From Candidatus Krumholzibacteriia bacterium (GTDB lineage: Bacteria > Krumholzibacteriota > Krumholzibacteriia > LZORAL124-64-63): a stretch of 64,000 nucleotides of DNA. The notes below the pieces were generated by a model that saw only the letters and a program-made list of their open reading frames with translations, ran no database searches and had not been told where the DNA came from. Shown one piece after another: positions 37,811 to 64,000 of this stretch (within the stretch, counting starts at the first letter, position 1; the number at the start of each line of letters is the position of its first letter). The translations under genes were made by a program, and so were the position numbers. Location: positions 183,775 to 247,774 of the forward strand of contig CAWGRT010000008.1 in NCBI GenBank assembly GCA_963825035.1, read 5' to 3'.

Positions 37811-37842
37811 TTGGCCACGGTCCCCCGTGCGAGGGCCCGCAG

Positions 37843-38384: not shown

Positions 38385-38469
38385 GGTGCCCGGGGCGGGA
38401 TTCGAACCCGCACGGCTTGTGGCCACTACCCCCTCAAGATAGCGTGTCTACCAGTTTCACCACCCGGGC
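38384..38469 (-). tRNA. tRNA-Leu (anticodon GAG), a class II tRNA with a long variable arm, including the encoded CCA.
   Basis: The reverse complement GCCCGGGTGGTGAAACTGGTAGACACGCTATCTTGAGGGGGTAGTGGCCACAAGCCGTGCGGGTTCGAATCCCGCCCCGGGCACCA folds as a cloverleaf with anticodon loop CTTGAGG. Confidence 0.85.
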
Positions 38470-38475
38470 CCGCGA

Positions 38476-38896: not shown

Positions 38897-39020
38897 GAGT
38901 CCAACTCCCGCAGGCGTCACCAATCACACGGATCACCGGTCCGACGGGGCCGGACCGGTGAGGGACGGGAAATCTAACATCCGGCCGCACGGCTGTCAAA
39001 CCGCCTGCGGCCGCGCGGGC

Positions 39021-40230
<1,210 letters not shown>

Positions 40231-40320
40231 GGTCCACCATCCGTGTCTGCGGTTGCGCGCCCGCACGGGGCGCCGCGGCATGGCGCCGCCGGACCATGTT
40301 AGGAGGGCCCCCGGGGTGTG

Positions 40321-41052: not shown

Positions 41053-41085
41053 CGGCGGCCGCCTTTCCGGGAGGCGGGATCGGGA

Positions 41086-42729: not shown

Positions 42730-42762
42730 GATGCCTTTCCCGGGGCGACGCGGGCGCCCGCC

Positions 42763-44025: not shown

Positions 44026-45812
44026 GGCAGCACCTCCAACCCCAGCTCGTCCTTCATGCGGAAATACTCCTCCAGCCACTGGCGCGCCACGGGCGCGGCC
44101 TCGGCGCTGCCCGACCCGGCGTTCTCCAGGATCACGGCGATGGCCACCTCCGGCTTGTCGGCCGGGGCGAAGGCCATGAACCAGGCGTGGTCCTCGCCGT
44201 GGGGATTCTGGGCGGTGCCGGTCTTGCCGGCCACCGGCACGTCCTCCAGCCCGGCGCCGTGGCCGGTGCCCGAGGCCACCACCGTGCGCAGGGCCTCCCG
44301 CGCCCAGCGCAGGTTCGCCGCCGAGAAGGGCAGCGGCGGCGGCGGCGTCCGTTCCGGCGCCGGATCGATCACGAAGACCGGGTCGGGCATGGTCCCGGCC
44401 GAGGCCAGGCGTCCCGCCAGCACGGCCATCTGCAGGGGCGTGACCAGCAGCTCGCCCTGGCCGATGGCGTTGTTCAGCAGCACGCCCCGGGTCCAGCCGC
44501 TTCTTGCCGAAGCGCTTGTCGTACCAGGCCGGGTCCGGCACGTTCCCTTCGACCTCCTCGGGGAAGATGCTGGTGCAGCGCCGTCCCAGGCCGAAGGCCC
44601 GCGCCGCCCAGGCGAGCTGGTCGATGTCCAGGCGCAGGCCCAGCTGGTAGTAGTAGGTGTCGCAGGACTGCGCCATGGCCTCCATGTGGTCCAGCGAGCC
44701 GTGGCCGCCGCGCTTCCAGCAGCGGAAGTAGCGGTCGCCGAACATCAGCCCGCCGTTGCAGGGCTCGAGCACGCTGTGGGGCCCCACCAGATCCAGTTGC
44801 AGGCCGGCCAGCGAGGTGACCGGCTTGTAGCAGCGAGCCCGGCGGGTAGGTGGCCTGGACGATGCGGTTGAAGAAGGGCTTGGCCGGGTCGTCGGCCAGG
44901 CGGTTCCAGTCCTCGGACGAGATGCTCGACCGTCAACAGGTTCGGATCGAAGGAGGGCATGCGAGACCGCCGCCAGCACCTGCGCCCGTGCGCACGTCCA
45001 GCGCCACGGCGCAGGCGGGCCGGTTGCCGAGGGCCTCGGCCAGCTGCGCCTGCAGGGGCAGGCGAGATGGACGAGGGTCACGTCCTGGCCCGGGCACCAC
45101 GTCGCGCAGCCACACGGGCTCGCGCCCGACGATGCGCCCGGTGGCGTTGACCTCCTCCAGCTTGATGCCGTTCTGCGCCGCGCAGGCGGTCCTCCATGGC
45201 GGCCTCCACGCCCTGCTTGCCCGACCTGGTCCCCCAGGCGGTAGCCGAAGGCGTCGCCGGTGGTGTCCAGGTCCGCCTGGCCGACCTCGCCCACGTAGCC
45301 CACCACGTGGGCCAGCAGGTCGCCGTAGGCGTAGCGCCGCCGCGCCCGCGCCTCCACCCGCACGTCCGGCAGCTGCCGCCCCCGTTCCTCGACCGCGGCG
45401 ATCTGGGGCATGCCCGCGTTGGGCACCAGCACCAGCGCGGCCGCGCCGCCGCTCCTTCTGCTGCTCCAGTCGCGCCAGGGTCTCGTCGCGGGGCAGGTCG
45501 AACCAGGCCATCAGCCGCGCCAGGGTCGAGTCGGGTCCCGCGTCGGTCAGGGCGGAGCGGGGCACGGTGATGTCGGCGATGAACATGTTGTCGGCGAGGA
45601 CGGCGCCGTGGCGGTCGAGGATGCGGCCCCGGGGCGCCCGCACGCGGAAGCGGTCCTGCCGGTTGCGCAGGGCCTTGCCCTGGTAGTAGGCGTGCCGCGG
45701 CACGGTCATGACGAAGAGGTTGACGACCAGCACCAGGAGCGCCGCGGTCACCACCACCCGGAGCACCCGGCTGCGGAGGTAGAGGTCGCGGTTCGACGTC
45801 CACGTCAGTCCT
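44022..45812 (-). CDS. mrdA: Penicillin-binding protein 2 (peptidoglycan D,D-transpeptidase). Frameshifted; the start is approximate.
   Basis: N-terminus SNRDLYLRSRVLRVVVTAALLVLVVNLF..RGRILDRHGAVLADN. Transpeptidase C-terminus KTGTAQNPHGEDHAWFMAFAPADKPEVAIAVILENAGSGSAEAAPVARQWLEEYF. Confidence 0.8.
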
Positions 45813-46300
45813 CCCGGCCGAGGATGCCGAGGAATCCCGCGAGGCGGATCACCGGCACCCCCACCAGCGCCGTGTACAGGGCCACCGGCAGGGTCTGGGT
45901 GAAGAGGGGCGTGAGGAAGGCGTCGTCGCTCATGCGGCTCTGCACCAGCAGGAAGACGATGTCGTGGGCCACCACCGCCAGGACCAGGACCATGGCCTCG
46001 ACCACGGGCATGCCGTAGACCAGGCGCCCGCGCAGGCGCCCCACCAGGAAGCCCAGCCCCGTCTTGCAGAGGGCGTGCAGGCCCAGCAGGTTCGGATTGG
46101 CCAGGTCCTGCACCAGGCCCAGCACGAAGCCGCCGACGGTGGCCGGCGCCGCGCCGGCGGCCAGCCCCAGCAGGACCAGGGCGATGATCGAGAAGTCGGG
46201 CGCGATGCCGCGGATGTCGATCAACGGGGCCGATCAGCGTGTCGCCGAGGAAGGCCACCAGCACCCAGAGCCACGGTGATGCGCGACGAAATCCCCTCAC
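45805..46300 (-). CDS. mreD: Rod shape-determining protein MreD. One frameshift.
   Basis: The GTG at 46300 overlaps the mreC stop. MRGFRRASPWLWVLVAFLGDTLIGP, then IDIRGIAPDFSIIALVLLGLAAG...LPVALYTALVGVPVIRLAGF. Confidence 0.7.
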
Positions 46301-47145
46301 CGGCGGCCCTCCGTCCGCTCGGCGGCGAAAGGCGTGACCACGAACACCGTCTCGTTGTAGTCGAAGGAGGCCGCCGGCTTGACCTCGATGCCCTTGAAGA
46401 TCTGGTCGGTGGGCGTGTCCACGCGGCTGACGCGTGCCCACGGGGAAGCCCCGCGGCGTGGCGTCGCCGGCGGCCGGGTCGTCCGCCGTCGCGTCCCACC
46501 TCGGCGATGCCCGAGGTGATGATCACGTCCCCCACGCGCACGTCCTCGTCGCGGCCCACCATCTCCACCACGTAGCTGTCGGCCCGCGGCCGCAGGATGC
46601 CCAGCAGCCCGGTGCGCTCGAACTCCACGCCCAGGGCGAAGTCCGGCGCGGTCAGCAGTTCGACCCAGGCCTCGCGGTCGTTGATCACCGTGCGCAGCCG
46701 GCCCAGGTAGCCCGCCCGCGAGATCACCGGCAGCCAGGGATGCCAGTCCACCGGCACCAGGCTCTCGATCTTGATCATGGTGGCGAAGCGGCCGCGCTCG
46801 CGCATGACCACGCGGCAGGGCACCAGGTCGCCGTCGTAGCCCGGCTCCAGCGCGGGTCCGGCCATGCGCAGGGCGTCGCGCTGCATGCGGTCGGCGGCGG
46901 CGGCCTGCATCTCCAGCTGCACCACGCCGCTCCTGCAGCCAGGCGTTCTCCTCGTGGACGCGGCTGACGTCCTCGCCGAAGTTGCGCACCGACCAGTAGG
47001 GGCCGGTGATCACCGCGCCCAGGCGGTCGGCCACGAGGATGCGGGTGTCGCGGGGCAGGACCAGCAGGGTCACCGACAGGGCCAGGCAGACCGCGAGGAC
47101 GAGCGTCTCGCGGTCCAGGGGCAGGTTCGGCGAGCGCGTCTGCAT
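46297..47145 (-). CDS. mreC: Rod shape-determining protein MreC. About 3 frameshifts.
   Basis: MQTRSPNLPLDRETLVLAVCLALSVTLLVL..; LEMQAAAADRMQRDALRMAGP...VVEMVGRDEDVRVGDVIITSGIAEV; VSRVDTPTDQIFKGIEVKPAASFDYNETVFVV. Confidence 0.78.
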   Translation of the reverse strand: MQTRSPNLPLDRETLVLAVCLALSVTLLVLPRDTRILVADRLGAVITGPYWSVRNFGEDVSRVHEENAWLQERRGAAGDAGRRRRPHAARRPAHGRTRAGAGLRRRPGALPRGHARARPLRHHDQDREPGAGGLASLAAGDLAGGLPGPAAHGDQRPRGLGRTADRAGLRPGRGVRAHRAAGHPAAAGRQLRGGDGGPRRGRARGGRDHHLGHRRGGTRRRTTRPPATPRRGASPWARVSRVDTPTDQIFKGIEVKPAASFDYNETVFVVTPFAAERTEGRR

Positions 47146-47149
47146 GGGA

Positions 47150-48185
47150 TCAGGACCGCCCGCCCTTCATGATCACGGGCCGGTAGCGCTCGAAGTCGTC
47201 GAGGATCTTGCCGGTGCCCAGGACCACGCAGAAGAGGGGATCGTCCATGACGTTGATGGGCAGGTCGGTCTGCTCGCGCAGCAGCTCGGGCAGGCCCTTC
47301 AGCAGGGCGCCGCCGCCGGTCAGCACGATGCCCCGGTCCTTGATGTCCGCGGCCAGCTCGGGCGGCGTCTGTTCCAGGGACTGCTTCAGGGCGTCGCAGA
47401 TGGCCTGGATCGGCTCCTGCAGGGCCTCGCGGATCTCCACCGAGGAGATCTTCAGGGTCTTGGGCACGCCCGACACCTGGTACAGGCCCTTGACCTCCAT
47501 CTCGCGCTCCTCGCCGTGCTTGTGGGCCGAGCCGATGGTCTTCTTGATGTTCTCCGCGGTCTGGTCGCCGATCAGCAGGTTGTGGTTCTTCTTCACGTAG
47601 TTGACGATGGCCTCGTCCAGCTCGTCGCCGCCCACGCGGATGGAGGTGTCGCAGACGATGCCGTTCAGCGCGATCACCGCGATCTCGCTGGTGCCGCCGC
47701 CGATGTCGATGATCATGTTGCCCGAGGGCTGGTCCACCGGCAGCCCCACGCCGATGGCCGCGGCCATGGGCTCGGCCACCAGGAAGACTTCCCGCGCGCC
47801 GGCGTGCTTGGCGCTGTCCCGCACCGCGCGCTTCTCCACCTCGGTGATGCCCGACGGCACGCAGATCACGATGCGCGGCGCGATGAAGTGGCGCTTCTTC
47901 TGCGCCATCTTGATGAACTCGCGCAGCATGTACTCGGTGACCTCGAAGTCGGCGATCACGCCGTCCTTCATGGGCCGGATCGCGGCGATGCCCTCGGGGG
48001 TCTTGCCGAGCATGGCCTTGGCATCGGCGCCCACCGCGTACACCTTGCCCGTGCTCTTGTCCAGGGCCACCACCGACGGCTGGTTGAGCACGATGCCCTT
48101 GCCCTTGATGTAGACGAGGGTGTTGGCCGTGCCCAGATCGATCGCGATGTCGTTGGTGAACATCCCCTGCAGGCGCTTGAGCATG
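47150..48185 (-). CDS. mreB: Rod shape-determining actin homologue MreB. Reads intact (~345 aa).
   Basis: ATG after GGAAGGA. MLKRLQGMFTNDIAIDLGTANTLVYIKGKGIVLNQPSVVA..MIIDIGGGTSEIAVIALNGIV...GIVLTGGGALLKGL. Confidence 0.92.
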
Positions 48186-48217
48186 TTTCCGAATCCTTCC
48201 GGAGGTGGCGGCCGTCT

Positions 48218-48935
48218 CAGGCGCCGGGTTGCCGACGGCCAGCCGTATTCCCTGATGCTGACGATCTCGGCGGCCCCGACCACGAGGTGGTCCAGCAGCG
48301 CGATGCCCAGCAGCTCGCCGCAGCGGTCCAGCCGCGCGGTGAGCTCGAGGTCGTCCCCGCTGGGCTCCGCGCAGCCCGAGGGGTGGTTGTGGGCCACGAT
48401 CACCGCCGCCGCCCGCATGGCCACCGCCGGCCGGAACACCTCGCGCGGATGCACCAGCGACGCGTTCAGCGAGCCCACGGAGACCGTCTCGACGTCCGTG
48501 ACCCTGTGCCTCGTATCGAGATAAAGCGCGAGGAACCGCTCCCTGTCAAGACCGCGAAATTCGCGGCGCAGCAGGGGGTGGCAGTCCTCGGGCCGCCGCA
48601 CCGCCGGCCCGTGGGCCGGGCCGGCCTCGGCCGCCCGCTGCCCCAGTTCCAGGGCCGCCAGCAGGCGGCCGCCCCGCACCGGGCCCACGCCCGGCAGGCG
48701 GCGCAGCACGCGCCGGCCGCTCCAGGGCCAGGCGGGCCAGCCCGCCGCCCTGCGCAAGCAGGTTGCGGGCCGTCGCTCCCGGCCGCGGGCCGTCCCGGCC
48801 CCAGCACCCAGGCCAGCAGCTCCCAGTCCGCCAGGGCCCCGGCCCCCAGGCGGCGCAGACGCTCGCCGCCGGGCCCGCCCCGACCCGCCGGGCTCGGGCC
48901 CGGCTCCGCCCTGGGTTATGTCGTTTGGAATCCAA
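48218..48935 (-). CDS. radC: DNA repair protein RadC (JAB/MPN domain, UPF0758). Frameshifted; the N-terminus is approximate.
   Basis: FLALYLDTRHRVTDVETVSVGSLNASLVHPREVFRPAVAMRAAAVIVAHNHPSGCAEPSGDDLELTARLDRCGELLGIALLDHLVVG. Confidence 0.75.
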
Positions 48936-49121
48936 GGCAATTCACCTGTCCCGGGAGGCGTGTGCACAGTAACAGACGGGGTCCGGCGAACGGCGACGTA
49001 TTTGCCGGAACCGCGGCGCCGCGCGGCTCGTTCTTGTGGCCGGACCGCGCCCTCCGCTACCATGGGCCCGTACCGCGCGCGCCGGAGCCGCCGGCGCAGG
49101 TCCGCCAGCAAGGATGGAGCC

Positions 49122-50400
49122 ATGCCTGCCCAGTCCGCCGCCACCCCGCCCCCGGTCCTGGTCCGCAAGTACGGCGGCTCGAGCCTGGCCACGGTCGACC
49201 GCATCCGCGCCGTGGCCGCCGACCTGCGCGCCGCCCGCGACGCCGGCTTCGCCGTCGTCGTGGTGGTCAGCGCCATGGGCCGCACCACCGACGAGTTGGC
49301 CGACCTGGCCCGGCAGGCCTCGCCCGCGCCGCCCCGGCGCGAGCTGGACATGCTGCTGTCGGTGGGCGAGCGCATCACCATGAGCCTGCTCTCCATGGCC
49401 CTGGACGACGCCGGCTGCCCCGCCATCAGCTTCACCGGCAGCCAGTGCGGCATCATCACCGACACCAGCCACACCGACGCCCGCATCCTCGAGGTGCGGG
49501 GCGACCGGGTGCGCGACGTCCCTGGCCCGGGGCTACACCGTGGTGGTGGCCGGCTTCCAGGGCGTCAGCCGCGAGAAGGAGATCACCACCCTCGGCCGCG
49601 GCGGCAGCGACACCACGGCCGTGGCGCTGGCCGCGGCCCTGGGCGCGGTGCGCTGCGAGATCCTCAAGGACGTCGACGGGGTGATGACCGCGGACCCGGG
49701 CCAGGTGCCCGACGCCCGGCCGCCACGAGCAGCTGAGCTGGGAGCAGATGCGCGACCTGGCCGCCTCCGGCTGCGGCGTCGTCCACCTGCGGGCCGTGGA
49801 GTACGCCGAGCAGCACCGCGTGCCCCTGGTGGTGCGCTCCAGCTTCCACGACGGCCCGGGCACGGTGATCGGCCCCGGCGCCGCCGCCGCCCCGGCGGGC
49901 CGGCGACCCGTGCCCGTGCCCCCGACGGCGGCCTGCGACCGGGACGTCGCGCTACCGTCCGCTGGTGATGCACGTGCGGCGCGGACGCGGCCCGCCTGCG
50001 CCTGGCCACGGCCGACCCGGCCGAAGGCATGCGCCTGCGGGACGCGGTGCTGGGCTGCTGGGATCCCGCCGGCGCGGTGGCCGAGTGGCTGGACGCCGGG
50101 GCCGGACTTCCGCTGGGAGGTGGTGGCCGCGGCCGCGGCCCTGGCGCCGGTGCGCGAGGTCCTGGCGGCCCTGGCGCCGGCGGCCGTGGCCTGGGAGGAC
50201 GGGCTGACCTGCGTCAGCCTGGCCGGGGGCCGGCCCGATTCCTGGCTGGAGGTGCAGCGCCACGTGGCGGGCCTGCTGGCGGGGCTGGACACGCCGCCCT
50301 GGCGCCTGCGCGCCGACGGCAGCGCCCTGCGGATCCTCTTCAGCGGCGAGCTGACGCCGGCGGCGCCGCCCGCCCTGCACGCGGCGCTGGTTCGAGATTG
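49122..50400 (+). CDS. lysC: Aspartate kinase. About 3 frameshifts.
   Basis: ATG at 49122. [23 protein letters not shown]...[39 protein letters not shown]; [52 protein letters not shown]; the ACT region ends [24 protein letters not shown] at the TGA at 50398. Confidence 0.82.
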
Positions 50401-50429
50401 AATTCCCGGTGCAGGAAGTGCCGCCAGCC

Positions 50430-51603
50430 GCCCCGGGGCAGGCGGTGGGCGGCCTCGGCCAGGAACCGGCGCGCCCGGGCCCGGATCGGCCAGCTTGCCG
50501 TGCAGCAGCACGATCACCCGCACCAGGGCCCGGTGCCCCTCCGGGTGGTCGGGGATAGCTCCAGAACAGGCTCTCGTAGGCGTCCAGGGCCCCGGCGTCG
50601 TCTCCCAGCTTCTCCCGCCAGTAGGCCACGCGCGCCAGCTCGTCGGGCCGGAACACGCGGCTGCCGGGTCCGCGGTCCACCTCGCGGTACACGTCCAGGG
50701 CCCCGGTCACGTCGCCGCGTTCGCGCTGCAGGCGGTTGAAGACCCGGCGGTAGTCCTCGCCCGCCGCGGCGTGCTGGCCGGCCAGGGCGCGGGCGCGGGC
50801 CAGCTCCAGGCGGCCTTCCTCGTCGTCCGGCTGCAGTTCCAGGTACTCGAGCCAGGCGCCGACGGCCGCGTGCACGTTGCCGTGCCGGGCGTAGCGCCGG
50901 GCCGCCGCCGCCCGCGACTCGGCGCGGGCCTCCTTGAACTGGCCCATGGCCAGCCCCAGGAACAGCCCCATGGCGAAGCCGCCGAAGTGGGCCCCGAACG
51001 ACGTGCCGCTGCCGGTCTCGCCGGCCACCGCCGCCTGCACCACCTGCAGCACGAGCCACAGGCCCACGGCCGCCACCACGGGCACCTCGGAGCGGCCCGG
51101 CCCGGTTCTGCCCGCCCAGGGGCGCGAAGACCCACCAGCCCACCTGCACCCGCGCGTCGTAGAAGCGCACCAGGCTGAAGGCCAGCATGCCGGCGATGGC
51201 GCCGCTGGCCCCCAGCACGCCCATGCCCCCCTGGCCCAGCCAGCCCATCATCGAGACCACGCCGTGCAGGGTGTTGCCCGCCGCCCCCATCAGCAGCAGG
51301 TAGACCAGGAAGCGCAGCCCGCCCAGGCGCGACTCCAGGGGCGGCGCGAAGACGTGGAAGTAGACCAGGTTCCCCAGCAGGTGCAGCCAGCTCACGTGCA
51401 GGAAGATGGCCGTGATCACCGTCCAGGGCGCCTCGTTGCCCGGGCACGAAGACCAGCTGCCAGGGGCGGATCGGACCCAGGTCCGGCGCGTAGTGCAGCC
51501 AGAGGAAGGCCAGGACCATCAGCACCTCGAGGGCGCGCGAAACCACGGGCAGGCCGCGGCGCGGCCGGTCCAGCCCGAGGGGGTAGAAATAGAAGAAGTA
51601 CAT
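50430..51603 (-). CDS. Rhomboid-family intramembrane serine protease with a C-terminal TPR-like extension. About 3 frameshifts; the end is uncertain.
   Basis: MYFFYFYPLGLDRP...; ITAIFLHVSWLHLLGNLVYFHVFAPPLE..GASGAIAGMLAF (GxSG active site); then GAHFGGFAMGLFLGLAMG... and a soluble helical repeat region (AWLEYLELQPDDEEGRLELARARAL..YRRVFNRL). Confidence 0.7.
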
Positions 51604-51709
51604 GCGCCGCCCCCGGCCCCGGGCCCTGCGGCCCGGTTCCGTGCCCGTGGATGTCGATGATCGTCCGGGAAGTTATCGGCAGGGGGGCGGGAAACTTGAC
51701 CCCGCGGCG

Positions 51710-52411
51710 TCAGGCGCGGCCGGCGGCCAGGGAATCGTCGACGATGAGGCCGTCGTGCAGCCGCAGGACCCGCCGGCAGCGGGCGGCGATGTCCTCCTCG
51801 TGCGTCACGATCACCACCGTGTGACCCCGTTCGTTGAGGCCGCCGATGATGGCCATGATCTCGTCGCTGGTGACCGAGTCGAGGTTGCCCGTGGGCTCGT
51901 CCGCCAGGATCAGGGACGGGTTGGTGACCAGGGCCCGGGCGATGGCCACCCGCTGGCGCTGGCCGCCGGACAGCTCGTTGGGCCGGTGGTGGGCGCGGTC
52001 GGACAGCCCCACCGCCTCCAGGGCGCGGGCCGTGCGCTCGGCGCGCTCGGCGGCCCGCAGCCCGGCGTAGATCAGGGGCAGCTCGACGTTCTGGGCCGCC
52101 GTGTTGCGCGGCAGCAGGTTGAAGGTCTGGAAGACGAAGCCGATCTCCCGGTTGCGGATCTCCGCGAGCCGGTCGTCCCCGAAGGTGGAGACCTCGGTCC
52201 CGTTCAGCCGGTAGGATCCGCTGGAGGGCGTGTCCAGGCAGCCCAGCATGTTCATCAGGGTCGACTTGCCCGAGCCGCTCGACCCCATGATGGCCACGTA
52301 CTCGCCGGCCTCGATGTCCAGGTCGATGCCCCGCACCGCCGGCACCTCCTGGGTGCCGACCAGGTAGATCTTGTGGAGGTCCCGGACCTCGATGACGCGT
52401 CCCTCGGCCAT
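51710..52411 (-). CDS. ABC transporter ATP-binding protein (MacB/LolD-type ATPase). Reads intact.
   Basis: [12 protein letters not shown] (Walker A), [15 protein letters not shown] (signature), [11 protein letters not shown] (Walker B), VVIVTHEE. Confidence 0.88.
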
Positions 52412-54206: not shown

Positions 54207-54857
54207 TCAGTTGAGGCGGAAGACGAACGGGACGGCCATCCACGCCTTCACCGGGATGTTGCGCTGCTTGCCCGGGAAGAAGGTCCAGCGGCGGGCGGCC
54301 TTCAGGGCCTCCCGGTCCAGCAGCGGGTGCACGCTCTGGATCACCTGGGCATCCTTGACCAGTCCGTCCGGCCCCACGAGCACCTTCACGATCACGGTGC
54401 CCTCCAGCTGCGAACGGCGCGCGATCTCCGGGTACTCGGCCTTGACCGGCACCTTCACCCGCGGGTTCTCCGACGAGGCCACGAAACCCTCGTCGCCCAG
54501 GGAATAGGTGGAGGTCGTCTGGCTGATGGCCGTGTCCAGGTCCATCAGGGTGTCGGCGATCTCCACGTCCTCGCTCACCTCGTCGTCCGGGGCGGCCTCG
54601 ATCACCTTGGGCGGCGGCGGGGCTTCCTGCGGCGGCGGCGGCAACTCGATGTCCTGGGTCTCGGGGATGTCGACGACCTCGAACTCCTCCTGCCGCAGCT
54701 TGTACGGGTGCGGCGTGTAGTTGGGCGAGAGGAGGAAGCCGAGCAGCGTCAGCAGGACGGCGATCAGCGCCGACCAGCGCAGGTACTTGTTGTACTTCGC
54801 CTTGAACTCTTCGTTCGCCGATAAAGGCAGTCCGTTGATCACCGGGACGGTCGCCAT
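54207..54857 (-). CDS. tonB: Energy transducer TonB. Reads intact.
   Basis: N-terminal TM segment; Pro-rich spacer PPPPQEAPPPPK; C-terminal TonB domain EGTVIVKVLVGPDGLVKDAQVIQSVHPLLDREALKAARRWTFFP. Confidence 0.82.
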   Translation of the reverse strand: MATVPVINGLPLSANEEFKAKYNKYLRWSALIAVLLTLLGFLLSPNYTPHPYKLRQEEFEVVDIPETQDIELPPPPQEAPPPPKVIEAAPDDEVSEDVEIADTLMDLDTAISQTTSTYSLGDEGFVASSENPRVKVPVKAEYPEIARRSQLEGTVIVKVLVGPDGLVKDAQVIQSVHPLLDREALKAARRWTFFPGKQRNIPVKAWMAVPFVFRLN

Positions 54858-54865
54858 GCCTGCTC

Positions 54866-55288
54866 CTAGAACTTGGCCCCGGGGTGGGACTCGATGTCGT
54901 TGTTGAAGAAGACGCGCACGGCGTTGACCTCCTTCAGCTCCTCCATCACGTCGCTCACCACCCCGTAATCGGTGTACGTGTCGGTCTTGAAGGCGACGAT
55001 CAATTGTGCGTTGTCGTTGATCTTCTGGCCGATGATGTCCCGCACGTTCCTCACCTTCACCAGCCGGTCGTCGATGGAGATCTGGCCGAGCCGGTTGATG
55101 TAGATGTTGGACACCAGCTCCCGGTTCACTTCCTCGCCGGCCTCCGCCCGCGGCAGCTCCACCGGCAGGCCCGTCTCCTCGCGGAAGATGGTCGTGACCA
55201 TGAAGAAGATCAGCAGCAGGAAGGCGATGTCGCCCATCGAAGAGGTCGGGATGAACGTTTCCTTCTTGGTGTTGCGATTGAAATCCAT
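54866..55288 (-). CDS. exbD: Biopolymer transport protein ExbD/TolR.
   Basis: MGDIAFLLLIFFMVTTIF...ISIDDRLV...AFKTDTYTDYGVVSDVMEELKEV. Confidence 0.82.
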   Translation of the reverse strand: MDFNRNTKKETFIPTSSMGDIAFLLLIFFMVTTIFREETGLPVELPRAEAGEEVNRELVSNIYINRLGQISIDDRLVKVRNVRDIIGQKINDNAQLIVAFKTDTYTDYGVVSDVMEELKEVNAVRVFFNNDIESHPGAKF

Positions 55289-55301
55289 CTCGTCCTCCTT
55301 C

Positions 55302-55721
55302 CTACCGTTCGGCGGTCTTCAGCGACACCTTGTTGGCGTTCGCCAGTCTCAGTTCGTCCAGGCACGCGACCATGCGGCCGTAGTCGGCGTCCGGGTGCAC
55401 CTTCAGCAGGACCACCAGCTTCGGGTTCGAGTCCAGCCGGTCCTCGATGGCGCGCTCGATGTGGTTGACCACGATCGGCTTGTTGTCCAGCGTGATCGAG
55501 TTGTCCGCGTGGACGAACAGCGTGGCGATGTTCTTCTCCGCCACCTTGACGACGTCGTCCAGTTCCTTCTGCTTGCCGGGCAGGACAAGGGTCAGGCCCT
55601 GCTCGGCCGCGAAGATCGTCGTGACGATGAAGAAGATCAGCAGGAGGAAGGCCACGTCGCTGGTGGAGGCCATGGGGATCTCCCCGAGCGCGCCCTTCTT
55701 CTTTTTCTTCATGAGGCCCAT
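55302..55721 (-). CDS. exbD: Biopolymer transport protein ExbD/TolR (second copy).
   Basis: TSDVAFLLLIFFIVTTIF..ITLDNKPIVVNHIERAI..LLKVHPDADYGRMVACLDELR. Confidence 0.82.
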   Translation of the reverse strand: MGLMKKKKKGALGEIPMASTSDVAFLLLIFFIVTTIFAAEQGLTLVLPGKQKELDDVVKVAEKNIATLFVHADNSITLDNKPIVVNHIERAIEDRLDSNPKLVVLLKVHPDADYGRMVACLDELRLANANKVSLKTAER

Positions 55722-55770
55722 CGATAGTCCATCCTCCCCGGCCCGGGGCCGGGACGTGCCAGGGTCGCGA

Positions 55771-56647
55771 CTAGCCCTTCAGGCGCTCCAGTTCCTCGAT
55801 CAGTTCCGCGCTGGTCTCCTCCATCTCGATGACGAAGCGGTCGATCGACGAGACGAAGTAGTTGTAGCCGATGGTCGCGGGAATGGCGACCACCAGGCCG
55901 GTGGCGGTGGTGATGAGGGCCTCGGAGATACCGCTGGCCACGAGCTTGGCGTTCACCTGCTCCGACGCGGCGATGGCCTCGAAGGCGTTGATCATACCCG
56001 ACACGGTGCCGAGGAAGCCGATCAGCGGGGCGATCGTGGTCACCGACGAGATCCAGATCAGGCCGCGCTCCAGGAAGGACATCTCGATGGTGCCCGCGGT
56101 GGCGATGGCCTTCTCCACGGCGTCGCGGCCCCTGTCCGCCTTCTGCAGGCCGGAGTAGAGGATGGCCGCGATCGGACCGCGCACCTTCTGGCATTCCTCG
56201 GCGGCCGCCTGGACACCGTCGTTGCGCAGCGTGGTGATCACCGTGCCGATCAGGCGCCGGGTGTTGACGCGCGCGCGGTTGAGGGTCCACAGGCGTTCGA
56301 TGAGGAAGACGAAGCCCGACCAGGGCCACGATCAGCAGCCACCACATGAACTGCCCGCCCTTGACGAACAGCTCACCGGCGCCGGTCTTGCCGAGGGGGG
56401 AGCGGTCCACGTAGCCCATCAGGCCGCCGACGGGCTGGATGATCTGGGGCACTTCCCGGAGGGAGTCCGACGCGGTCGACCCGAAGCCCAGCGAGTCGCT
56501 CGTGGCCTGGATCTTGGCGAACTTGTCGGCCGCCGAGTCAGCGGCGGGCTGATCCTGCGCCAGCACCGGGGCCGCCAGGATCAGTCCCAGCAGCCCGAGG
56601 GTGATGAACCCGAAAATGGCGCTTTTCAACGTACCGTGACGAGCCAT
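55771..56647 (-). CDS. exbB: MotA/TolQ/ExbB proton-channel protein. One frameshift near 56300.
   Basis: ATG after GGGAGAC. N-terminal signal-like region; then the MotA_ExbB core ISSVTTIAPLIGFLGTVSGMINAFEAIAAS..GISEALITTATGLVVAIPATIGYNYF. Confidence 0.82.
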
Positions 56648-56911: not shown

Positions 56912-58549
56912 TCACTCCTCGCCCTGGACCACGTTGGACGATTCCAGGTAGAACTGGCCGGTGCCCGTCCGGTCCACGAACAGGAACCGCTGCCCCATGC
57001 CGATGTGGGAGAAACGGCTCGGCCACAGGGGCTTGCCCCCGTTGTCGTACTCCCACAGCTCGAAGCCGAACAGGTGCGACGCCTTCTGCAGGGTGATGTC
57101 CCGCTGGTACTCCGCCCGCTGCGACGCGGCTGCCAGTCGGGCCGGTCGGCCCCGTTCGACGGCGCGGTGCTCACCCGGCCCTGGATTCTGCCGCGCTCCG
57201 CGTACACCTCGCGCTCGGGAGCGAAGCGGTTGAAGACGTTGATGCGGGCGTCGTCCTGGGCCCTGTAGTCGTTGGGCATGTGGGACCGCTTGATGTCGTC
57301 GGGCCTGCCCAGGGCCAGGAACACTTCGCCGCGGGGATCGGCGGCGCCGAACTCGTCGAAGCCCCCCAGGAACTGGCGGACGTAGGCCAGCCGGTACTGG
57401 AACTCCAGGTAGGCCTCGTTGATCGGGACTCTCCGGGTCCGGGTTGACGCTGGCCCAGTAGGCCTTGAGCATGTTCTCCTGTTCGGCCGCGCTCGACGCC
57501 AGGAAGCGCGTCCAGCTGCTTGCCGTGGAAGATGGTGCGCCCCTCCCCCCGCACCTGGGCGGGCCGCCGCGCCAGGGCGGCCAGGCGCCAGACCACGTCG
57601 AACTGCTGCACCGACCCCCGCCCCCGCCGGTCCAGGGGCGCCAGGCTCAGCAGGAACGACCCTTCGGGCAGGAGATTCACGTCCAGCTCGTAGAAGATGC
57701 CCGCCGGACGGCCGGCCGCCAGGGCGGCCCGGCCCACCTCGTCGAACTGGATGGTGTCGGTCACCGCGAAGTCCAGGTCGAGGCTGGACACCTTCACCTG
57801 CAGGCCCGACCGAATCGGCTTCCAGCGGCGATGCCGCCGACGGCGGGCCACACCGGCACGAAGATCTGCAGATGGTCCTGCTCCAGGCCGTAGCGACGGG
57901 ACGGGTGCATGTAGTCGTGCAGCCATGCCGGTGCCCCGGGCGTCCACGTTCTCGGGCCGCCAGCGCTGCAGGGGCGCCTGGGCCAGGTACAAGGGGTCGC
58001 CCACGGCCAGGCCGCGCGCCGGCCGCGGCCCGTCGTCCGCCGCCCAGGCGCCGGCGGCGGCGCTGACCTCGTTGTTCTTCCGGATGATGTTGAGCAGCCC
58101 CTCCTTGCGCTGGTTGAGGTCGTAGACCTCGCAGCGGATGCGACCGCTGCGGAACGGCACGTCCTCCAGGACCACGCCGAAGTTCTGGAAGAGGGTCGGG
58201 CTGGCGGCGTCGTTCGCGCTCAGCACCGGGGTCTTCACGGGCCGGCGTTCGGTGATCGACGTGGCCGTACGGATCCTCCAGCTCCACATCGACCCGCAGG
58301 CGTCCCTGCAGACCGCCCCCGGCTTCCGATGAAAGCCAGGTCGGCGTTGGCCACCTCCACCAGGACCAGCACGTCCAGGGTGCCTCGTCGCGCCAGCGGT
58401 TGACCACGTCGACGCCGCGGTGAAGTTCCCCCGCCCGTCCAGGGGACGCACGATGGCGGACCGAAGTCGCCGGCAACGGCGAGCGACACGGCGATGGCGG
58501 GCAGAGGATGCGCGCGCACTGCGGGAAAACGGCAGGAGATCCGTGCCAT
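56912..58549 (-). CDS. Secreted GWxTD-domain-like protein of unknown function. At least 4 frameshifts.
   Basis: Signal peptide MARISCRFPAVRAHPLPAIAVSLAVAG. Protein-like blocks LFQNFGVVLEDVPFRSGRIRCEVYDLNQRKEGLLNIIRK; INEAYLEFQYRLAYVRQFLGGFDEFGAADPRGEVFLALGRPDDIKR (resembles the GWxTDRG..YI..G.PD.I core); C-terminus FGFELWEYDNGGKPLWPSRFSHIGMGQRFLFVDRTGTGQFYLESSNV. Confidence 0.5.
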
Positions 58550-58666
58550 GACGGGGCCTTTGCTGCGGGTGTCGAACCGATCCCCCTCGACCGGCGCCGG
58601 CTTTGCCGGCTACCCTGATTCTAAGGAAATCGCGGCGGTCTTGGCCAGCGGGAAGGTCGGTTCCGG

Positions 58667-58698
58667 GAAAAAAGCCGCCCCGCGGGCAGGCGGGGCGG
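58667..58698 (-). terminator. Rho-independent terminator downstream of the PorV-like gene (stem gccgccccgc/gcggggcggc, then U-tract on the minus strand).
   Basis: aaaaaagccgccccgcgggcaggcggggcggc. Confidence 0.7.
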
Positions 58699-59730: not shown

Positions 59731-62616
59731 CTACCTGACCACCACGAACTTGCCGACGAAGTCTGCTGAAGCGGTCTGTCGTCCGACTGCACGGAATAGA
59801 GGTAGACTCCACTGACGATTTCCTGGCCGTTCCGGCTCATCAGGTTCCAGCTGACGTGCCCGGAACCCGGTCGTCCCGTCGTGCTCGATCGTCTGCACCA
59901 GGTCCCCCGCCACCGTGTAGATCTTGACGGTGTTGTGGGCCATGGGCAGGTTGGTGAACGTCACCCTGACGCCGGTGGGGTCGTCGCCGTTGGGGAACAG
60001 CTGCTGGTACTCCGCCAGCGCATCGCGGGTGGCGGGATTCGGATAGACGTAGATGTTCGTCCCGTCGGCGGCCCGCTGCTCGGCCGGTCTGCGCCTCGGT
60101 GCCCGGCTGGGTGTTGCCGAAGGACGATCCGGGGTCGCCCACCAGCCCCGGCCCGGCCGGGCCGGTGATCCCCCACTGGTTGCCCGCAGGCAGCAGCTCG
60201 TGGTCGGTCGACGTCACCGAGTAGAAGTAGATGAAGCCGTTGTGGATGTCGCGGTCCACGTACTCGTAGTACCGGGTGGCCCGCTTCTCCTCCACCTCGT
60301 TGGCCGGATCCGGCGCGCGGTAGGTCACGGCCCAGAAGGTGTCCAGGGCCGCGTCCTCGGTCTGCCAGTCCGCCAGCGCCACGTACTGCGTCCTTGAGCT
60401 GGCCGTCCTGGTTGAACATCGGCGGCCGCACCTGGCTGGTGTTGTGGGGCTCGGAGTCCACCACCTGCTGCATCGCCTCGGCCAGGCCCGCGTACTGGGG
60501 ATCGCTGAGGATCCGCGGCGTGTAGCGGATGCTCTCGAGGCCCGTGTTGGCGCCCAGGGGGATGGTGTCGTAGCACCGTGCCGCTGGGCACGTCGCGATG
60601 GGTGATGTAGTTGTTGATCAGGTCGTACTCGTCGATCAGCTGCCACAGGCCGCTCTCCGGGCCGTTGGCCAGGGACGAGCCGTAGGGGCGCTCCCAGTTG
60701 TCCGCGCGCCAGATGCGGTACGACTCGAAGTCGATCTTCTGCAGCCGGATGTCCTTGGCGTACTCGGGCGAGTCGTCCCAGAACACGTGGACCCGGCTGT
60801 CGGCCGACCACAGGCGCAGACCCGGCGGCGGCGGCGCCATGCCCACCAGCCAGTGGATCTGCGTATCCAGGCCGCCGACGCCCGTGCAGCCGATCTTGTT
60901 GCCGTTGGGCAGGTTGCACTGCCAGGTGCCGTCTTTCGAAATCCGCGGGGCCGCAGTACCGGCCCAGCTGGCGCGCACACTCGAAGCAGTTGTCCATGTT
61001 GAACATGGCGCAGGTCTTGCCGTCGTACTCGAAGCGGTCGTCCTCCGTCACGCGCTGCTGGCCCAGCAGCCACTGGGGGTCGACGCACGTGGTGTCCATG
61101 AAGTCCGGGGAACCAGGTGTCGAAGGGGTTGTCCTTGCCCGGCGACTCGAAGTCCTCGCGGCAGAGCAGGGTCTCGCGGCCGTTGATGCCCGGGTTGAAC
61201 TCGAGTCCGGACTCCGCCTGGACCGGTGCCGACGTCCTGCACCCAGACGCCGTACCAGGTCAGCGCGGCCTCGGCGCAGTTGGCCAGCAGGCCGGGGGTG
61301 CCGTCGGCCGTGCCCAGCCCCGGCCCCACGACCATGCCCACCTGGAAGCGCAGGCTCTCGTCCGGCGGAGGCTCACGAACGGGCCCGCCGAGACCAGGAA
61401 GCGGAAGTCCGCCTGCTTGCCCGGCGGGGTGTTGGCGTCCCAGTCCTCCGGCGCCGCGCTCAGCAGCTGGTAGCGCTCGTCGTCGTTGGTGGGGTCGCCG
61501 CCCTGCTCGAAGGCCGCGTTGCCCGAGAACGACTGGAACGTGCGCAGACCCACGTGCGGCGGGCGCCGTGCGTGCCGGTGGGGTCGATGTTGTGGCCCAG
61601 GAAGAGGATGCCGAAGTAGCCGTCGATGCGGCCGCTCTCGGCGGCGTCGTACATGTAGCCGACCTCGACCGGCACGAAGCTGCCGTCGGAGGCCGCGCAC
61701 CAGGCCGCGCCAGCTGCCGGCCATGTCGTCGTCGGCGATGCCGTCGGCCGCGCGGGGCCCGATGTCGCTGTCGGCGAAGAAGCCCAGGTAGACCCGCTCG
61801 ATGTCGGTGACGCCGACGTTCTTGATGGCGTACTCGAAGCCCACGAAGTCGTCGACCTGGTCGTTCTCCCACTGGTAGGTGCTCTGGACGATCTCCAGGT
61901 TCAGCGGCGTGTGGTCCGGGTTGTCCTCCTGGGCCAGCCGCGTGTTGTCGTACTGGGTCAGCACCATCATCTGGTTGCCGATCTGCCCGAAGTCCTCGTC
62001 GATCAGGCCGTCGTCGTCGTCGTCCTTGCCGTTGAGGGTCTCCTCGTCGATGCGCGGCGAGCCGTCGTCGTTGAAGTCGCCGTCGTCGTTGGGACTGGGC
62101 ATCGGGCGCCCGGCGGCCGCTGGCGTCGACGTTCCCCGGCGGCCGCATCAGCTTGGTGCCGATGGCCTCGTAGATGGTGGCCTCGACCTCGTCCAGGGGA
62201 TAGATCTCGCTGCTAGAAGCCGCCGGCCGGTGGACACCAGCCGCTCGCCCAGCACGACGCCGCCCACCCACAGGCCGGCGGCCCACAGGTACTCGTTGCC
62301 GGAGCCGGCGGGCCACTGGCAGGAGGGCGCGTCCGAGAAGGGCGTCGCCGATCGACGGCGCCGACCCGATCAGGCCCCAGTTGGTGATGTTGATCTGGAC
62401 CTCGCCCACGTTCATCACGTAGCTGCCGTCCAGGATGAAGGCGCCGCTGGGATTGTAGCCCATGTCGAGGACCGGATTGGGTCCGTGCATCACCGCCGCG
62501 GCCGGCGCGGCGAGGCTGGCCGTCAGCAGGAGCAGGCCCACAGCAGCGCCGCCCCGCGAGGGCGCCACCGCCGCTGCCTGGCCGCGTTGATACTCGATGG
62601 TCCTGTTCATCGCCAT
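59731..62616 (-). CDS. Large secreted type IX secretion cargo protein (~960 aa) with an Asp-rich Ca-binding-like region and a Por/T9SS C-terminal sorting domain. At least 6 frameshifts; function unknown.
   Basis: Signal peptide MAMNRTIEYQRGQAAAVAPSRGGAAVGLLLLTASLAAPAAA. D-rich block SPNDDGDFNDDGSPRIDEETLNGKDDDDDGLIDEDFGQ. Sorting domain YPNPA..VRVTFTNLPMAHNTVKIYTVAGDLVQTIEHDG..WNLMSRNGQEIVSGVYLYSVQSDD..GKFVVVR to the stop at 59731. Confidence 0.6.
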
Positions 62617-62663: not shown

Positions 62664-64000
62664 CTAGAAGTAGTAGCCGAGCCCGATCCGGAACAGCCGG
62701 TGCTGGCCGAACGTCCGCGGATCGTAGAACGGGATGAATTCGTCGACGCCGTCGCCGTTGGCGTCCTGCAGCAGGGCCGCGCCGTACTTGCCCGTCTCCG
62801 TGAGGTAGGACATGCCCGGCGTAGCGCGCCCCGTTGATCATGCCCGGGCTGATGCCGCCGCCGCCCGGGTTGTTGGATGACGTCCTGGTTCAGCAGGTTG
62901 AAGCCCTGCAGCTGCAGGGACAGCCGCTTGCCGTAGAAGTTGATGTTGCGCTCGAACTGGATGTCCAGGGAGTAGGTCGCCGGCAGGCGCTCGCTGTTCT
63001 CCAGCATGGGGTCCTGCCGCTTGGCGAAACGGTCCACCGGCGTCCAGGGGAAGCCGCTGCCGTAGGAGAAGGTGAACGACGTGCGACCACACGCCCGGGC
63101 TCGGCCAGGCGCAGCAGCAGGTTCGCCGTGTGGCGCTGGTCCCAGGCCAGCGGCAGCTCCTGGTTCGGCAGGTAGGCCAGGCCCTCGGGGTTCGACCCGA
63201 AGGCCGTGTCCGAGGCCACGCCGTCGGCGAAGGAGTAGGTGTAGCTGAACATGAACTGGTAGTTGTCGCTGTAGCGCTTCTCCAGGGTCATCTCGATGCC
63301 GCGCGCCGAGGCGTAGGCCTTGTTGATGTAGCGCGCCAGCGTCTGGCCCGTCGGACGTGTCCGTCACCTGGGTGGACGCGATCAGGTCGTAGATGTCCTT
63401 GCTGTAGAGCGAGAACTGGCCGGCGATGTAGTCGGTGAACTGGTGCTTGATGCCGGCCGAGTACTGCACCGTGGTCATCGGCTGCAGGTTCGGGTTGCCC
63501 AGGATGCCCGCGTTGCCGACGGGATCCTGGCTGGCGAACAGGTACTCGCGGCTCGGGGAACTGCACGAAGCGGCCGTAGTGGAAGTGGAAGCCGTCGCGC
63601 TCGGTGATGGGGAAGGCGAAGCCGAGGCGCGGCTGGAACGCGGTCTTGTACTTCACCACGTTGGCGTCCACGTCCTCGTTGGCCAGGTCGATGGCCGCCG
63701 CGCTGCCCGGGGAGAACATGTCCCAGCGCAGGCCGTAGTTCACCACCATGCCCTCGTACTCCCAGCGGTCCTGGGCGTACCAGTAGCCCTCGGGGTTGTA
63801 GGTGTGGAAGACGTTGCGGTTCTGGCCCTGGGTCCACTCGCCGGTGAAGCGGCTCTGGCGCATGATGGCCGGCTGGATCAGGCGCGTAGCGCTCGAGGTC
63901 GTTGTAGCGCACGCCGAAGCCGGTCTCCACCAGGTGCCCGTCCCAGCGGTTGCTCACCAGCTCGAAGCCCAGGCTGTAGGTCCGGCTGTACTCCTCCTGG
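62664..64000 (-). CDS. TonB-dependent receptor, C-terminal portion only. The gene continues beyond the window edge. Frameshifted.
   Basis: Beta-barrel segments PRLGFAFPITERDGFHFHYGRFVQFP; QFSLYSKDIYDLIASTQV; MTLEKRYSDNYQFMFSYTYSFADG; TFSYGSGFPWTPV; LSLQLQGFNLLNQDV; terminal ...YYF to the stop at 62664. Confidence 0.7.

Follow-up and report, generated by a model that had tools for sequence, protein, structure and literature searches.

TonB-dependent transporters with a surface partner include SusC-SusD, RagA-RagB, BtuB-BtuG, and TbpA-TbpB, and the known partners are lipoproteins, with an alpha-helical TPR-like fold in SusD and a propeller in BtuG. Type IX secretion system (T9SS) surface proteins, which carry a C-terminal sorting domain (CTD), are paired with outer-membrane barrels in several described cases. 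PorV and PorQ anchor PorU and PorZ to the cell surface of P. gingivalis (Glew 2017, PMC5562754), and type B CTD cargo proteins have a cognate PorP/SprF-like barrel encoded beside them, as in SprB-SprF and PG1035-PorP (Gorasia 2022, PMC9143113). Here, we analyzed a 64,000-nucleotide stretch of DNA (the window) from a Candidatus Krumholzibacteriia bacterium (GenBank assembly GCA_963825035.1, contig CAWGRT010000008.1, positions 183,775 to 247,774) and focused on one of its genes, which we call X. X encodes a predicted secreted protein of 957 residues ending in a type IX-style CTD, and it lies between genes for a TonB-dependent receptor and for an outer-membrane barrel of the PorV/PorQ family (PorV/Q), followed by a gene for a GWxTD-domain protein. 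This order of four genes is conserved among Krumholzibacteriota. We tentatively propose, at a confidence somewhat short of an even chance, that X is a Ca2+-stabilized subunit of a TonB-dependent uptake complex and serves on its extracellular side for capture or as a lid, being exported by means of its CTD and tethered by the PorV/PorQ-like barrel.

As in PorZ-PorQ and PorU-PorV (PMC5562754), the X locus combines a CTD-bearing surface protein with a PorV/PorQ-family barrel thought to hold it, and the CTD of X is closest to those of PorZ and PorU both by sequence model and by fold. Unlike PorZ, X has no pair of beta-propellers, and unlike PorU, it has no C25 peptidase domain; the X-barrel pair, whose members would bind one another, sits between a TonB-dependent receptor and a GWxTD protein. 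The principle of a CTD protein anchored noncovalently by its own dedicated outer-membrane barrel, as described for SprB-SprF and PG1035-PorP (PMC9143113), would also apply to X. Unlike SprF, the barrel encoded beside X belongs to the PorV/PorQ family, scoring 12.6 bits against a cutoff of 90.55 with the PorP/SprF model, and unlike type B cargo, X carries a CTD that matches the type A model, with weak scores for the type B-like model CHU_C.

Similarly to SusC and RagA systems, the receptor gene precedes that of the proposed partner, the receptor has an N-terminal CarboxypepD_reg-like domain, and a capture or lid role is proposed for the partner. Unlike the lipoproteins SusD and BtuG, X, which is rich in beta structure, would reach display by way of a CTD and a PorV-like barrel; with no lipobox, a predominantly beta model, and no SusD Pfam match, X was rejected as a SusD/RagB-like partner. 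The module also includes a fourth conserved gene, encoding the GWxTD protein, which has no counterpart in SusC-SusD-type systems.

Results

Conserved gene order around X

A preliminary description of this DNA, made from the sequence alone, had placed X between a TonB-dependent receptor gene and a PorV-like gene and had linked it to both. The placement was correct, with the receptor gene ending at position 62664 and the PorV/Q gene starting at 59668, and the link was borne out when we examined the neighbors of X homologues. In a scan of one genome per species, we found 79 X loci, whose named phylum was nearly always Krumholzibacteriota, with some loci carrying the title "uncultured Fibrobacteraceae." By tblastn, the order receptor-X-PorV/Q-GWxTD was kept in about 57 of the 79, and the ExbB-TonB-OEP genes lay downstream of the module wherever the contig was long enough. 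The complete order on clean contigs was an Opp-like ABC permease, the receptor, X, the PorV/Q barrel, GWxTD, ExbB, ExbD, ExbD, and TonB, with OEP, ABC ATPase, and rhomboid genes 3' of TonB. Two loci (contigs L021 and L024, from metagenome-assembled genomes [MAGs]) had the variant order PorV/Q-X-GWxTD, with the barrel gene upstream of X. The remaining loci (approximately 17 of the 79) held paralogues, 39 to 67% identical, without receptor or PorV neighbors.

The arrangement extended beyond close relatives. Five distant proteins sharing the N-terminal module of X (N-module; approximately 30 to 45% identical, 835 to 1,210 residues), from other lineages and two of them labeled Eisenbacteria, were encoded in the order X, then a PorV-like gene, then GWxTD. 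Upstream of X, three of the five loci had a complete receptor gene, one had a cut gene of 841 residues, and one had the start of the contig. Glycolysis genes (gap and/or pgk) lay directly downstream in three of these loci (L089, L090, and L091), two of which also had tpi and secG there. In L001, which supplied the orthologues for comparison of neighboring genes, and in L004, Opp-like permease and ATPase genes lay directly upstream of the receptor; Eisenbacteria-type loci lacked them. The conserved unit is the receptor-X-PorV/Q-GWxTD tetrad and not the Opp genes or the immediate TonB cluster. The preliminary description had also suggested a locus resembling a polysaccharide utilization locus (PUL). 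We rejected this assignment, as the four-gene module is fixed across the phylum and set among core or housekeeping genes, which in the window include pgk, secG, and mreBCD.

Where examined, the paralogues without receptor or PorV neighbors were tandem head-to-tail pairs of similar length in unrelated contexts. These pairs, of 946 and 952, 924 and 919, and 944 and 944 residues, were located in L005/L006 (L005 positions 10001-12841 and 13290-16148), L092 (7064-12760), and L093 (2915-8534). A cobW/SBP/ABC cluster beside the pair in L005 was considered as a functional clue and set aside, as it did not recur in L092 or L093.

A lineage-expanded N-module family

Among 5.8 billion proteins searched, 552 matched X, far more than chance would give. 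Among the 120 of the 552 matches that were listed, proteins were approximately 820 to 980 residues long and 60 to 77% identical to X over 85 to 100% of the query; they were annotated "hypothetical protein," and their named sources were nearly always Krumholzibacteria(-ota). At the DNA level, the closest relatives of the window were the MAG contigs L007 and L070, at approximately 85% nucleotide identity, and none was identical.

A profile of X searched against 1.84 billion cluster representatives (clusters at 50% identity) matched 4763 clusters at an E value of ≤1e-3, including 1707 at ≤1e-10 and 337 at ≤1e-30. Most of the 4763 clusters, with proteins of 500 to 1,200 residues, shared only profile positions ~20 to 448, which correspond to the N-module. 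Many paralogues of varied lengths were found per genome. Shorter paralogues of approximately 620 and 540 residues consist of the N-module and a CTD; the named ones all come from Krumholzibacteria, and one shares a MAG with the closest named orthologue of X. Two distant N-module proteins, P0152 and P0229, were labeled Eisenbacteria. Together, these searches indicate that the N-module defines a large, unannotated, lineage-expanded domain family. Among the papers searched, we found no description of the X family or of the four-gene module, and a search on Krumholzibacteria(-ota) or Eisenbacteria together with type IX or T9SS found nothing relevant.

One further family member, P0247 (834 residues), has an ABC_tran/oligo_HPY (OppF-like) C terminus fused to an N-module. 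P0247 is either a miscall across adjacent genes or an indication of an Opp ATPase gene abutting an X-like gene with no receptor gene between them.

Integrity of the X gene

X had been described as a frameshifted protein of about 960 residues. By three-frame translation, the coding signal of X switches among the three minus-strand frames from 62616 to 59731, in a window with a G+C content of 72%. We joined these frames by eye into 957 residues and then verified the result by a frameshift-aware dynamic-programming protein-to-DNA alignment to P0001, the closest database homologue of X and our reference for indel correction and residue numbering. The alignment revealed 14 single-base insertions and 2 single-base deletions, 16 indels in all, near positions 62346, 62222, 62212, 62106, 61688, 61569, 61366, 61221, 61106, 60934, 60588, 60389, 60082, 59868, 59774, and 59761. 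The start codon is the ATG at 62616 (MAMNRT...) or at 62610 (MNRT...), the last codon occupies 59734-59736, and the stop codon occupies 59731-59733 of the minus strand.

After indel correction, a check that the preliminary description had proposed, the stitched frames gave one continuous open reading frame (ORF) of 957 residues with zero in-frame stops, 77% identical to P0001 from the first residue to the last. Of 232 alignment columns showing no variation among 59 homologues, the corrected protein retains 231, and the sole lost column adjoins one of the two deletions. The same alignment procedure detected 7 single-base indels in the receptor fragment (all insertions), 12 in the GWxTD gene, 2 in PorV/Q, 1 each in exbB and the OEP gene, and 0 in both exbD genes, tonB, and the ABC ATPase gene. 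The neighboring genes that we checked were 70 to 94% identical to their L001 orthologues and, once corrected, were without an internal stop, except for one stop codon in the OEP alignment. Throughout the genes checked between 52000 and 64000, indels were almost all insertions, were not tied to homopolymers, and were unevenly dense, a profile from which we infer uncorrected long-read consensus error. Because the neighboring genes bear the same kind of indels, the frameshifts of X point to sequence error rather than decay. We conclude that X is a real, intact gene and that errors of assembly or sequencing account for its apparent frameshifts. The size in the preliminary description thus stands for a single ORF, and the frameshifts are error-like and not biology. 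The part of the window that was checked, at ~52 to 64 kb, in which an apparent pseudogene is an assembly artifact, wants polishing ahead of gene calling.

Domain architecture of X

AlphaFold2 modeling of P0001 with an alignment of 135 sequences gave a mean pLDDT of 91 and a pTM of 0.86, and we set domain boundaries by secondary structure, model confidence, and conservation (Table 1). The signal peptide, acidic block, and CTD that had been read from direct translation are all present in the corrected protein. The N terminus has a charged n-region, an 18-residue hydrophobic core (AAVGLLLLTASLAAPAAA), and an AxA-like site with no lipobox Cys, and residues 1 to 55 of P0001 form the signal peptide and a flexible linker, modeled with low confidence or as disordered after the helix at residues 18 to 31. 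As read by eye and from the AlphaFold2 helix rather than from a predictor, this region is signal-peptide-like, suggesting that X bears a Sec-type signal peptide.

The N-module contains an acidic block, DDGDFNDDGSPRIDEETLNGKDDDDDGLIDEDFGQ, with the loops DFNDDG..DEE and DDDDDGLIDED. The block was modeled without regular secondary structure at pLDDT values of 81 to 92. Rigden and Galperin reportedly described DxDxDG calcium-binding loops in thrombospondin (TSP) type 3 repeats, dockerins, and EF-hand-like sites, and it is by this motif class that Ca2+ binding is assigned to the Asp loops. Similarly to such loops, X has two consecutive D-x-[DN]-x-[DN]-G...D/E motifs that are invariant in the family. 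Because the Asp and Glu positions of the block are 88 to 100% conserved across 101 diverse N-modules, the loops appear to be an integral, presumably Ca2+-binding feature of the N-module fold. No TSP_3, Dockerin, or EF-hand model passes in X, whose loops sit within a large beta-sandwich instead of making up a repeat array or a cohesin-binding module. The likeness to TSP type 3 or dockerin loops noted previously therefore holds at the level of the motif, with two DxDxDG loops, and goes no further. With only these two loops and no TSP_3 or Dockerin match at an E value of ≤1 in X or in 54 diverse relatives, X was rejected as a TSP type 3 repeat or dockerin protein. Other near-invariant N-module residues among diverse members are His230, Arg375, and Asp218, Asp292, Asp318, Asp372, and Asp397.

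The Cys-rich subdomain is the least conserved part of X. Fibronectin and insulin-receptor FN3 arrays were among the Foldseek matches of the X model, which also includes an FN3-like sandwich.

We did not detect a recurring Pfam or NCBIfam model on the N-module in X, its close homologues, or 54 diverse relatives, and a 59-sequence profile of X produced zero matches to PDB sequences even at an E value of ≤10. The central ~800 residues thus have no counterpart among the sequence families of Pfam, NCBIfam, or the PDB, as the preliminary description had suspected for the central region. Structure prediction and Foldseek, which it had also proposed, gave no clear match to a known enzyme family, and no catalytic fold was found in X by Pfam, NCBIfam, PDB sequence search, or Foldseek against the PDB. 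The one recurrent fold-level likeness is to the beta-supersandwiches of GH116, GH65, GH94, GH63, and dextran dextrinase entries (E value of ~1e-4, TMq of ~0.2). Foldseek gave no query coordinates, and from the approximately 190 residues superposed, it is most likely the N-module that matches the N-terminal beta-supersandwiches of these enzymes. Unlike those enzymes, X has no (alpha/alpha)6 catalytic domain and no sequence similarity to them; with no large helical domain in the model, no GH Pfam match, and a TM-score of ~0.2, X was rejected as a member of GH116, GH65, GH94, or GH63.

The CTD and its relatives

The preliminary assignment of a type IX CTD was supported by both sequence and structure. 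Corrected X scored 23.8 bits with TIGR04183 (cutoff, 23), and P0001 and P0003 scored just under the cutoff, at 21.7 and 19.5 bits. The Por_Secre_tail score of X was under the Pfam cutoff, and FlgD_ig gave 20 bits. Among 54 diverse relatives of X, TIGR04183 matched 39 (best E value, 2.3e-10), PF18962 matched 13, and the PorZ C terminus matched 46. The best Foldseek match of the X model in the PDB was the CTD of PorZ (5m11; E value of 4.4e-6, 26% identity over 113 columns), and PorU was second, with poor superposition. These findings indicate a type IX-style CTD of type A, borderline by sequence and clear by fold.

The C terminus of X also matched the C-terminal ends of the NCBIfam models for PorZ and PorU. 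As a candidate PorZ (NF052228), X was rejected with 31 to 35 bits against a cutoff of 260, a match to model positions ~665 to 757 only, and no beta-propellers in the AlphaFold2 model. As a candidate PorU (NF033707), it was rejected with 19 to 21 bits against a cutoff of 420, a match to C-terminal positions only, and no Peptidase_C25 Pfam match. Comparison with 6za2 for PorU by Foldseek gave a TM-score of 0.08.

Reading by eye, without a hidden Markov model (HMM) scan and with the plus strand read in part, we recognized no type IX core gene (SprA/Sov, PorK/L/M/N, or PorU) among the minus-strand ORFs of the window. Apart from the PorV/PorQ-family gene, no such gene was seen in any other locus examined either, in flanks that are a tiny part of each genome and with no dedicated search. 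A second candidate CTD-bearing cargo gene lies at ~13277 to 16950 on the minus strand, with subtilisin-like motifs by eye (ILDSGCD, HGTALAS, and GTSMAAAH), a DLDGDGG-type repeat region resembling FG-GAP/VCBS by eye, and a C-terminal sorting domain beginning RLTVFPNPGAG.

Conservation and covariation of X domains

In the syntenic X family, mean pairwise column identity was highest in the CTD (0.79), followed by the N-module (0.70), the FN3-like region (0.61), and the Cys-rich subdomain (0.54). In the 620-residue paralogue family, the CTD value was approximately 0.5 and not above that of the N-module, and the single locus of this family that we examined (L086) had no PorV-like neighbor. A CTD that stays bound to a conserved partner would explain such high conservation, which is not required of a signal used a single time and then cut off.

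We then calculated mirror-tree partial correlations over 27 genomes, controlling for ExbB, TonB, and OEP distances. The N-module correlated with the receptor at 0.60 and with PorV/Q at 0.35, and the CTD correlated with both PorV/Q and the receptor at 0.54. For PorV/Q, the correlation with the FN3-like region was 0.07 and that with GWxTD was 0.68, the highest value for GWxTD. These values fit contacts of the CTD with the barrel and of the N-module with the receptor and are suggestive only.

Neighboring genes in the window

The receptor fragment was 94% identical to the L001 receptor, a protein of approximately 1,000 residues with CarboxypepD_reg and Plug domains and a TonB_dep_Rec barrel. In a PDB search, the receptor sequence matched no solved TonB-dependent transporter, and it gave no match to the SusC/RagA model at an E value of ≤0.1; one receptor homologue weakly matched the OMP_b-brl_4 barrel model. 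The energizing genes of L001 matched MotA_ExbB, ExbD, and TonB_C in Pfam.

The L001 PorV/Q protein scored 173.4 bits with NF033709 (cutoff, 90), 64.9 bits against a cutoff of 250 for PorV, and 74.9 bits against a cutoff of 220 for PorQ, and it matched F. johnsoniae PorV (6h3i_F) with an E value of 3.6e-5. Because these scores are above the family cutoff and below both equivalog cutoffs, the downstream barrel is classed by sequence as a PorV/PorQ family member and not assignable as a PorV or PorQ orthologue.

The fourth protein, as modeled from P0279 (AlphaFold2, pLDDT of 85), has Ig-like sandwiches at its N terminus, followed by a helical GWxTD domain at the C terminus. Foldseek found no PDB match for the helical domain, with matches limited to the tandem Ig beta-barrels of transglutaminases, and a literature search on GWxTD found nothing relevant.

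Intergenic gaps are 47 bp between the receptor gene and X and 62 bp between X and PorV/Q, and no terminator-like site lies in the latter. Such sites are as numerous in the region as expected by chance, and it is a possibility, weakly indicated, that the receptor-X-PorV/Q transcript ends at the hairpin past the PorV/Q stop codon (Table 1). A sigma-70-like site precedes the GWxTD start (hairpin-to-site region, 58618-58693, minus strand), with site counts again at chance level. There are hints that receptor-X-PorV/Q and GWxTD-exbBD-tonB may form separate transcripts.

From ~34000 to 52000 on the minus strand, we recognized by eye a core housekeeping set, with genes for OEP, an ABC ATPase, and rhomboid and the genes radC, mreB-mreC-mreD-PBP2-rodA, lgt, and aroE, along with pgk, secG, an EF-G-like GTPase, ruvCAB, queA, tgt, yajC, def, fmt, rsmB, and rpe. 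Within this region, a Lys/Ala-rich ORF at 37846-38185 (minus strand) has (KKKVAKKAA)n repeats and resembles histone H1-like or AlgP-like basic proteins. Farther away, at ~7200 to 13200 on the minus strand, one or more very large, heavily frameshifted ORFs rich in Ala, Arg, and Leu had no domain recognized by eye.

Table 1. Features of X and its module, in positions of the window
Feature	Position	Strand	Evidence or remarks
X (whole gene, stop included)	59731..62616	minus	957-aa predicted secreted CTD-bearing protein; 16 single-base indels in window
Signal peptide and start region of X (aa 1-~40)	62488..62616	minus	Read from sequence; AlphaFold2 helix 18-31; no lipobox Cys
N-module, ~400-aa beta-sandwich (P0001 aa 56-455)	61234..62442	minus	AlphaFold2 pLDDT mostly >90
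Asp-rich block (aa ~166-206)	61983..62105	minus	Motif scan; two DxDxDG-type putative Ca2+ loops
Cys-rich subdomain (aa ~456-590)	60832..61233	minus	7 family-invariant Cys (8 at ≥90% conservation)
FN3-like beta-sandwich with helical insertion (aa ~591-835)	60095..60831	minus	PPPPGLRLW...YRIWRAD...YFYSVTS; AlphaFold2 secondary structure
Type IX-style CTD (aa 848-954), YPNPA...GKFVVVR	59734..60057	minus	TIGR04183; Foldseek match to PorZ CTD
TonB-dependent receptor, C-terminal ~440 aa, cut by window end	62664..64000	minus	Ends ...GLGYYF*
PorV/PorQ-family outer-membrane barrel, 310 aa	58734..59668	minus	93% identical to L001 protein
Terminator-like hairpin and T-run	58675..58693	minus	Just past PorV/Q stop; consensus match only
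GWxTD-domain gene, ~545 aa, fourth gene of module	56912..58549	minus	TIGR04514, 42.7 bits; 12 indels
ExbB, ExbD, ExbD, and TonB genes	54207..56419	minus	87-94% identity to L001 proteins

Discussion

We propose a model in which X would cross the inner membrane via Sec and then the outer membrane by a CTD-dependent, type IX-like route. On the surface, X would be retained with its conserved CTD docked to the co-encoded PorV/PorQ-like barrel, and the N-module would act with the neighboring receptor as an extracellular subunit that captures the ligand or serves as a lid, binding it without enzymatic action, with import energized by the adjacent ExbBD-TonB system. The N-module would be held together by its two Asp-rich, probably Ca2+-binding DxDxDG loops, and the Cys-rich part would be rich in disulfides.

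Several observations weigh against this model. The match to the PorZ C terminus is generic to the whole N-module family and alone is no proof of retention through the CTD, and the mirror-tree values are inflated by shared phylogeny. The X family can do without partners in cis, because paralogues, some of them 60% identical, form tandem pairs whose surroundings contain neither a receptor nor a PorV-like gene. The invariant His, Arg, and Asp residues of the N-module could form an active site, the GWxTD partner is left unexplained by a capture subunit, and our reading of the minus-strand ORFs of the window by eye, without an HMM scan, recognized no type IX core gene.

An alternative that deserves serious attention, and that we nevertheless consider unlikely, is that X is an ordinary type IX cargo enzyme, displayed on or released from the surface, that cuts a polymer for import by the receptor; it could be a peptidase of a novel type or a lyase or hydrolase that depends on Ca2+ and acts on polysaccharides. 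In Krumholzibacteriota, the oligopeptide-type ABC permease encoded upstream would then carry the pieces over the inner membrane, and the Opp-like permease and ATPase genes do lie directly upstream of the receptor gene in L001 and L004; this linkage, however, is missing in Eisenbacteria-type loci. The near-invariant His230, Arg375, and several Asp residues of the N-module would suit catalysis, yet searches with Pfam, NCBIfam, a PDB sequence profile, and Foldseek turned up nothing catalytic, neither domain nor motif. The likeness, probably of the N-module, to the beta-sandwiches that accompany GH116, GH65, GH94, and GH63 catalytic domains could be read in the same direction, but the matches have a TM-score of only ~0.2, and the beta-sandwich of such enzymes is itself noncatalytic. 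Many paralogues of varied lengths per genome are typical of degradative cargo, and the window contains another CTD-bearing, subtilisin-like gene; in contrast, phylum-wide conservation of 55 to 80% in a fixed, housekeeping-like module would be unusual for a substrate-specific degradative enzyme.

It is also conceivable, but distinctly improbable in our view, that X and the PorV/Q-like barrel are parts of the CTD sorting machinery, as a lineage-specific counterpart of PorZ-PorQ or PorU-PorV, and not partners of the receptor. The best matches of the X CTD to the PorZ and PorU C termini, an adjacency of X and barrel genes that mirrors the pairing of the PorU-PorV and PorZ-PorQ proteins, and the presence of one highly conserved syntenic copy per genome with the CTD as its most conserved domain are all consistent with such a role. 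X nonetheless falls far under the PorZ and PorU cutoffs and has neither beta-propellers nor a C25 peptidase domain. Its combination of N-module and CTD recurs in many paralogues per genome, which would be unusual for a component of a machine, and the linkage to the receptor and GWxTD genes would be left unexplained.

Tannerella TfsA and TfsB are tandem-encoded surface layer (S-layer) proteins anchored through the CTD pathway. X and its paralogues could likewise be Ca2+-dependent subunits of a surface coat or S-layer, anchored by their CTDs, with the syntenic copy surrounding the receptor, and we give this the same low standing as a role in sorting. Members of the family are large, beta-rich proteins with conserved DxDxDG (putative Ca2+) loops and a CTD, the paralogues are typically tandem pairs, and the family is expanded within its lineage. 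The lone S-layer match by Foldseek is, however, meaningless (7ptp; root mean square deviation of 28 Å and probability of 0.66), and the fixed order with the receptor, PorV/Q barrel, and GWxTD genes is not explained by a coat.

Myxococcus Oar is said to have been proposed to act outward in PopC secretion. By analogy, the TonB-dependent barrel of the tetrad might work outward and, with the PorV-like barrel and GWxTD, make up a small device for export or anchoring of CTD proteins that has X as its dedicated cargo and replaces or supplements the SprA translocon, a prospect that we regard as highly improbable. It would suit a fixed tetrad beside its own ExbBD-TonB motor, a receptor too divergent to match any solved TonB-dependent transporter and with a homologue weakly matching OMP_b-brl_4, and fetched loci, each a tiny genome fraction, in none of which a type IX core gene was seen. 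Yet a plugged barrel of 22 strands is too narrow for a folded 100-kDa protein, and paralogues that share this CTD have their genes nowhere near such a receptor.

Finally, despite 16 frame disruptions within 2.9 kb, it is very unlikely, close to negligibly so, that X is a decaying pseudogene with real frameshifts, because its indels are error-like (14 of the 16 add a single base at sites other than homopolymers), its neighbors are affected alike (insertion-type densities are comparable in the receptor gene, at 7 per 1.3 kb, and the GWxTD gene, at 12 per 1.6 kb, with such errors sparser in PorV/Q, ExbB, and OEP), and the corrected gene keeps 231 of 232 invariant residues with zero in-frame stops.

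Returning to X as a capture or lid subunit, the tetrad is a variation on two known themes, a TonB-dependent transporter with a surface partner and a CTD protein with a dedicated anchoring barrel. We think it unlikely that Krumholzibacteriota and Eisenbacteria have in the tetrad an outer-membrane machine of a kind not described before, either a transporter with a barrel-tethered CTD lid in place of a SusD-type lipoprotein or, more boldly, a TonB-powered device for CTD proteins without SprA and PorKLMN.

Whatever its function, the approximately 400-residue beta-sandwich with DxDxDG loops identifies a family of 4763 representative clusters, and the tetrad is a concrete, conserved target for prediction of complex structures and for metaproteomics. 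If our proposal is true, some candidate phyla have a novel solution to building the surface partner of their TonB-dependent transporters: where SusD, RagB, and BtuG of Bacteroidota rely on a lipoprotein anchor, a type IX-style CTD docked to a dedicated PorV/PorQ-like barrel would stand in for it. Such an arrangement would join type IX sorting and TonB-dependent uptake, two systems that are usually studied apart.

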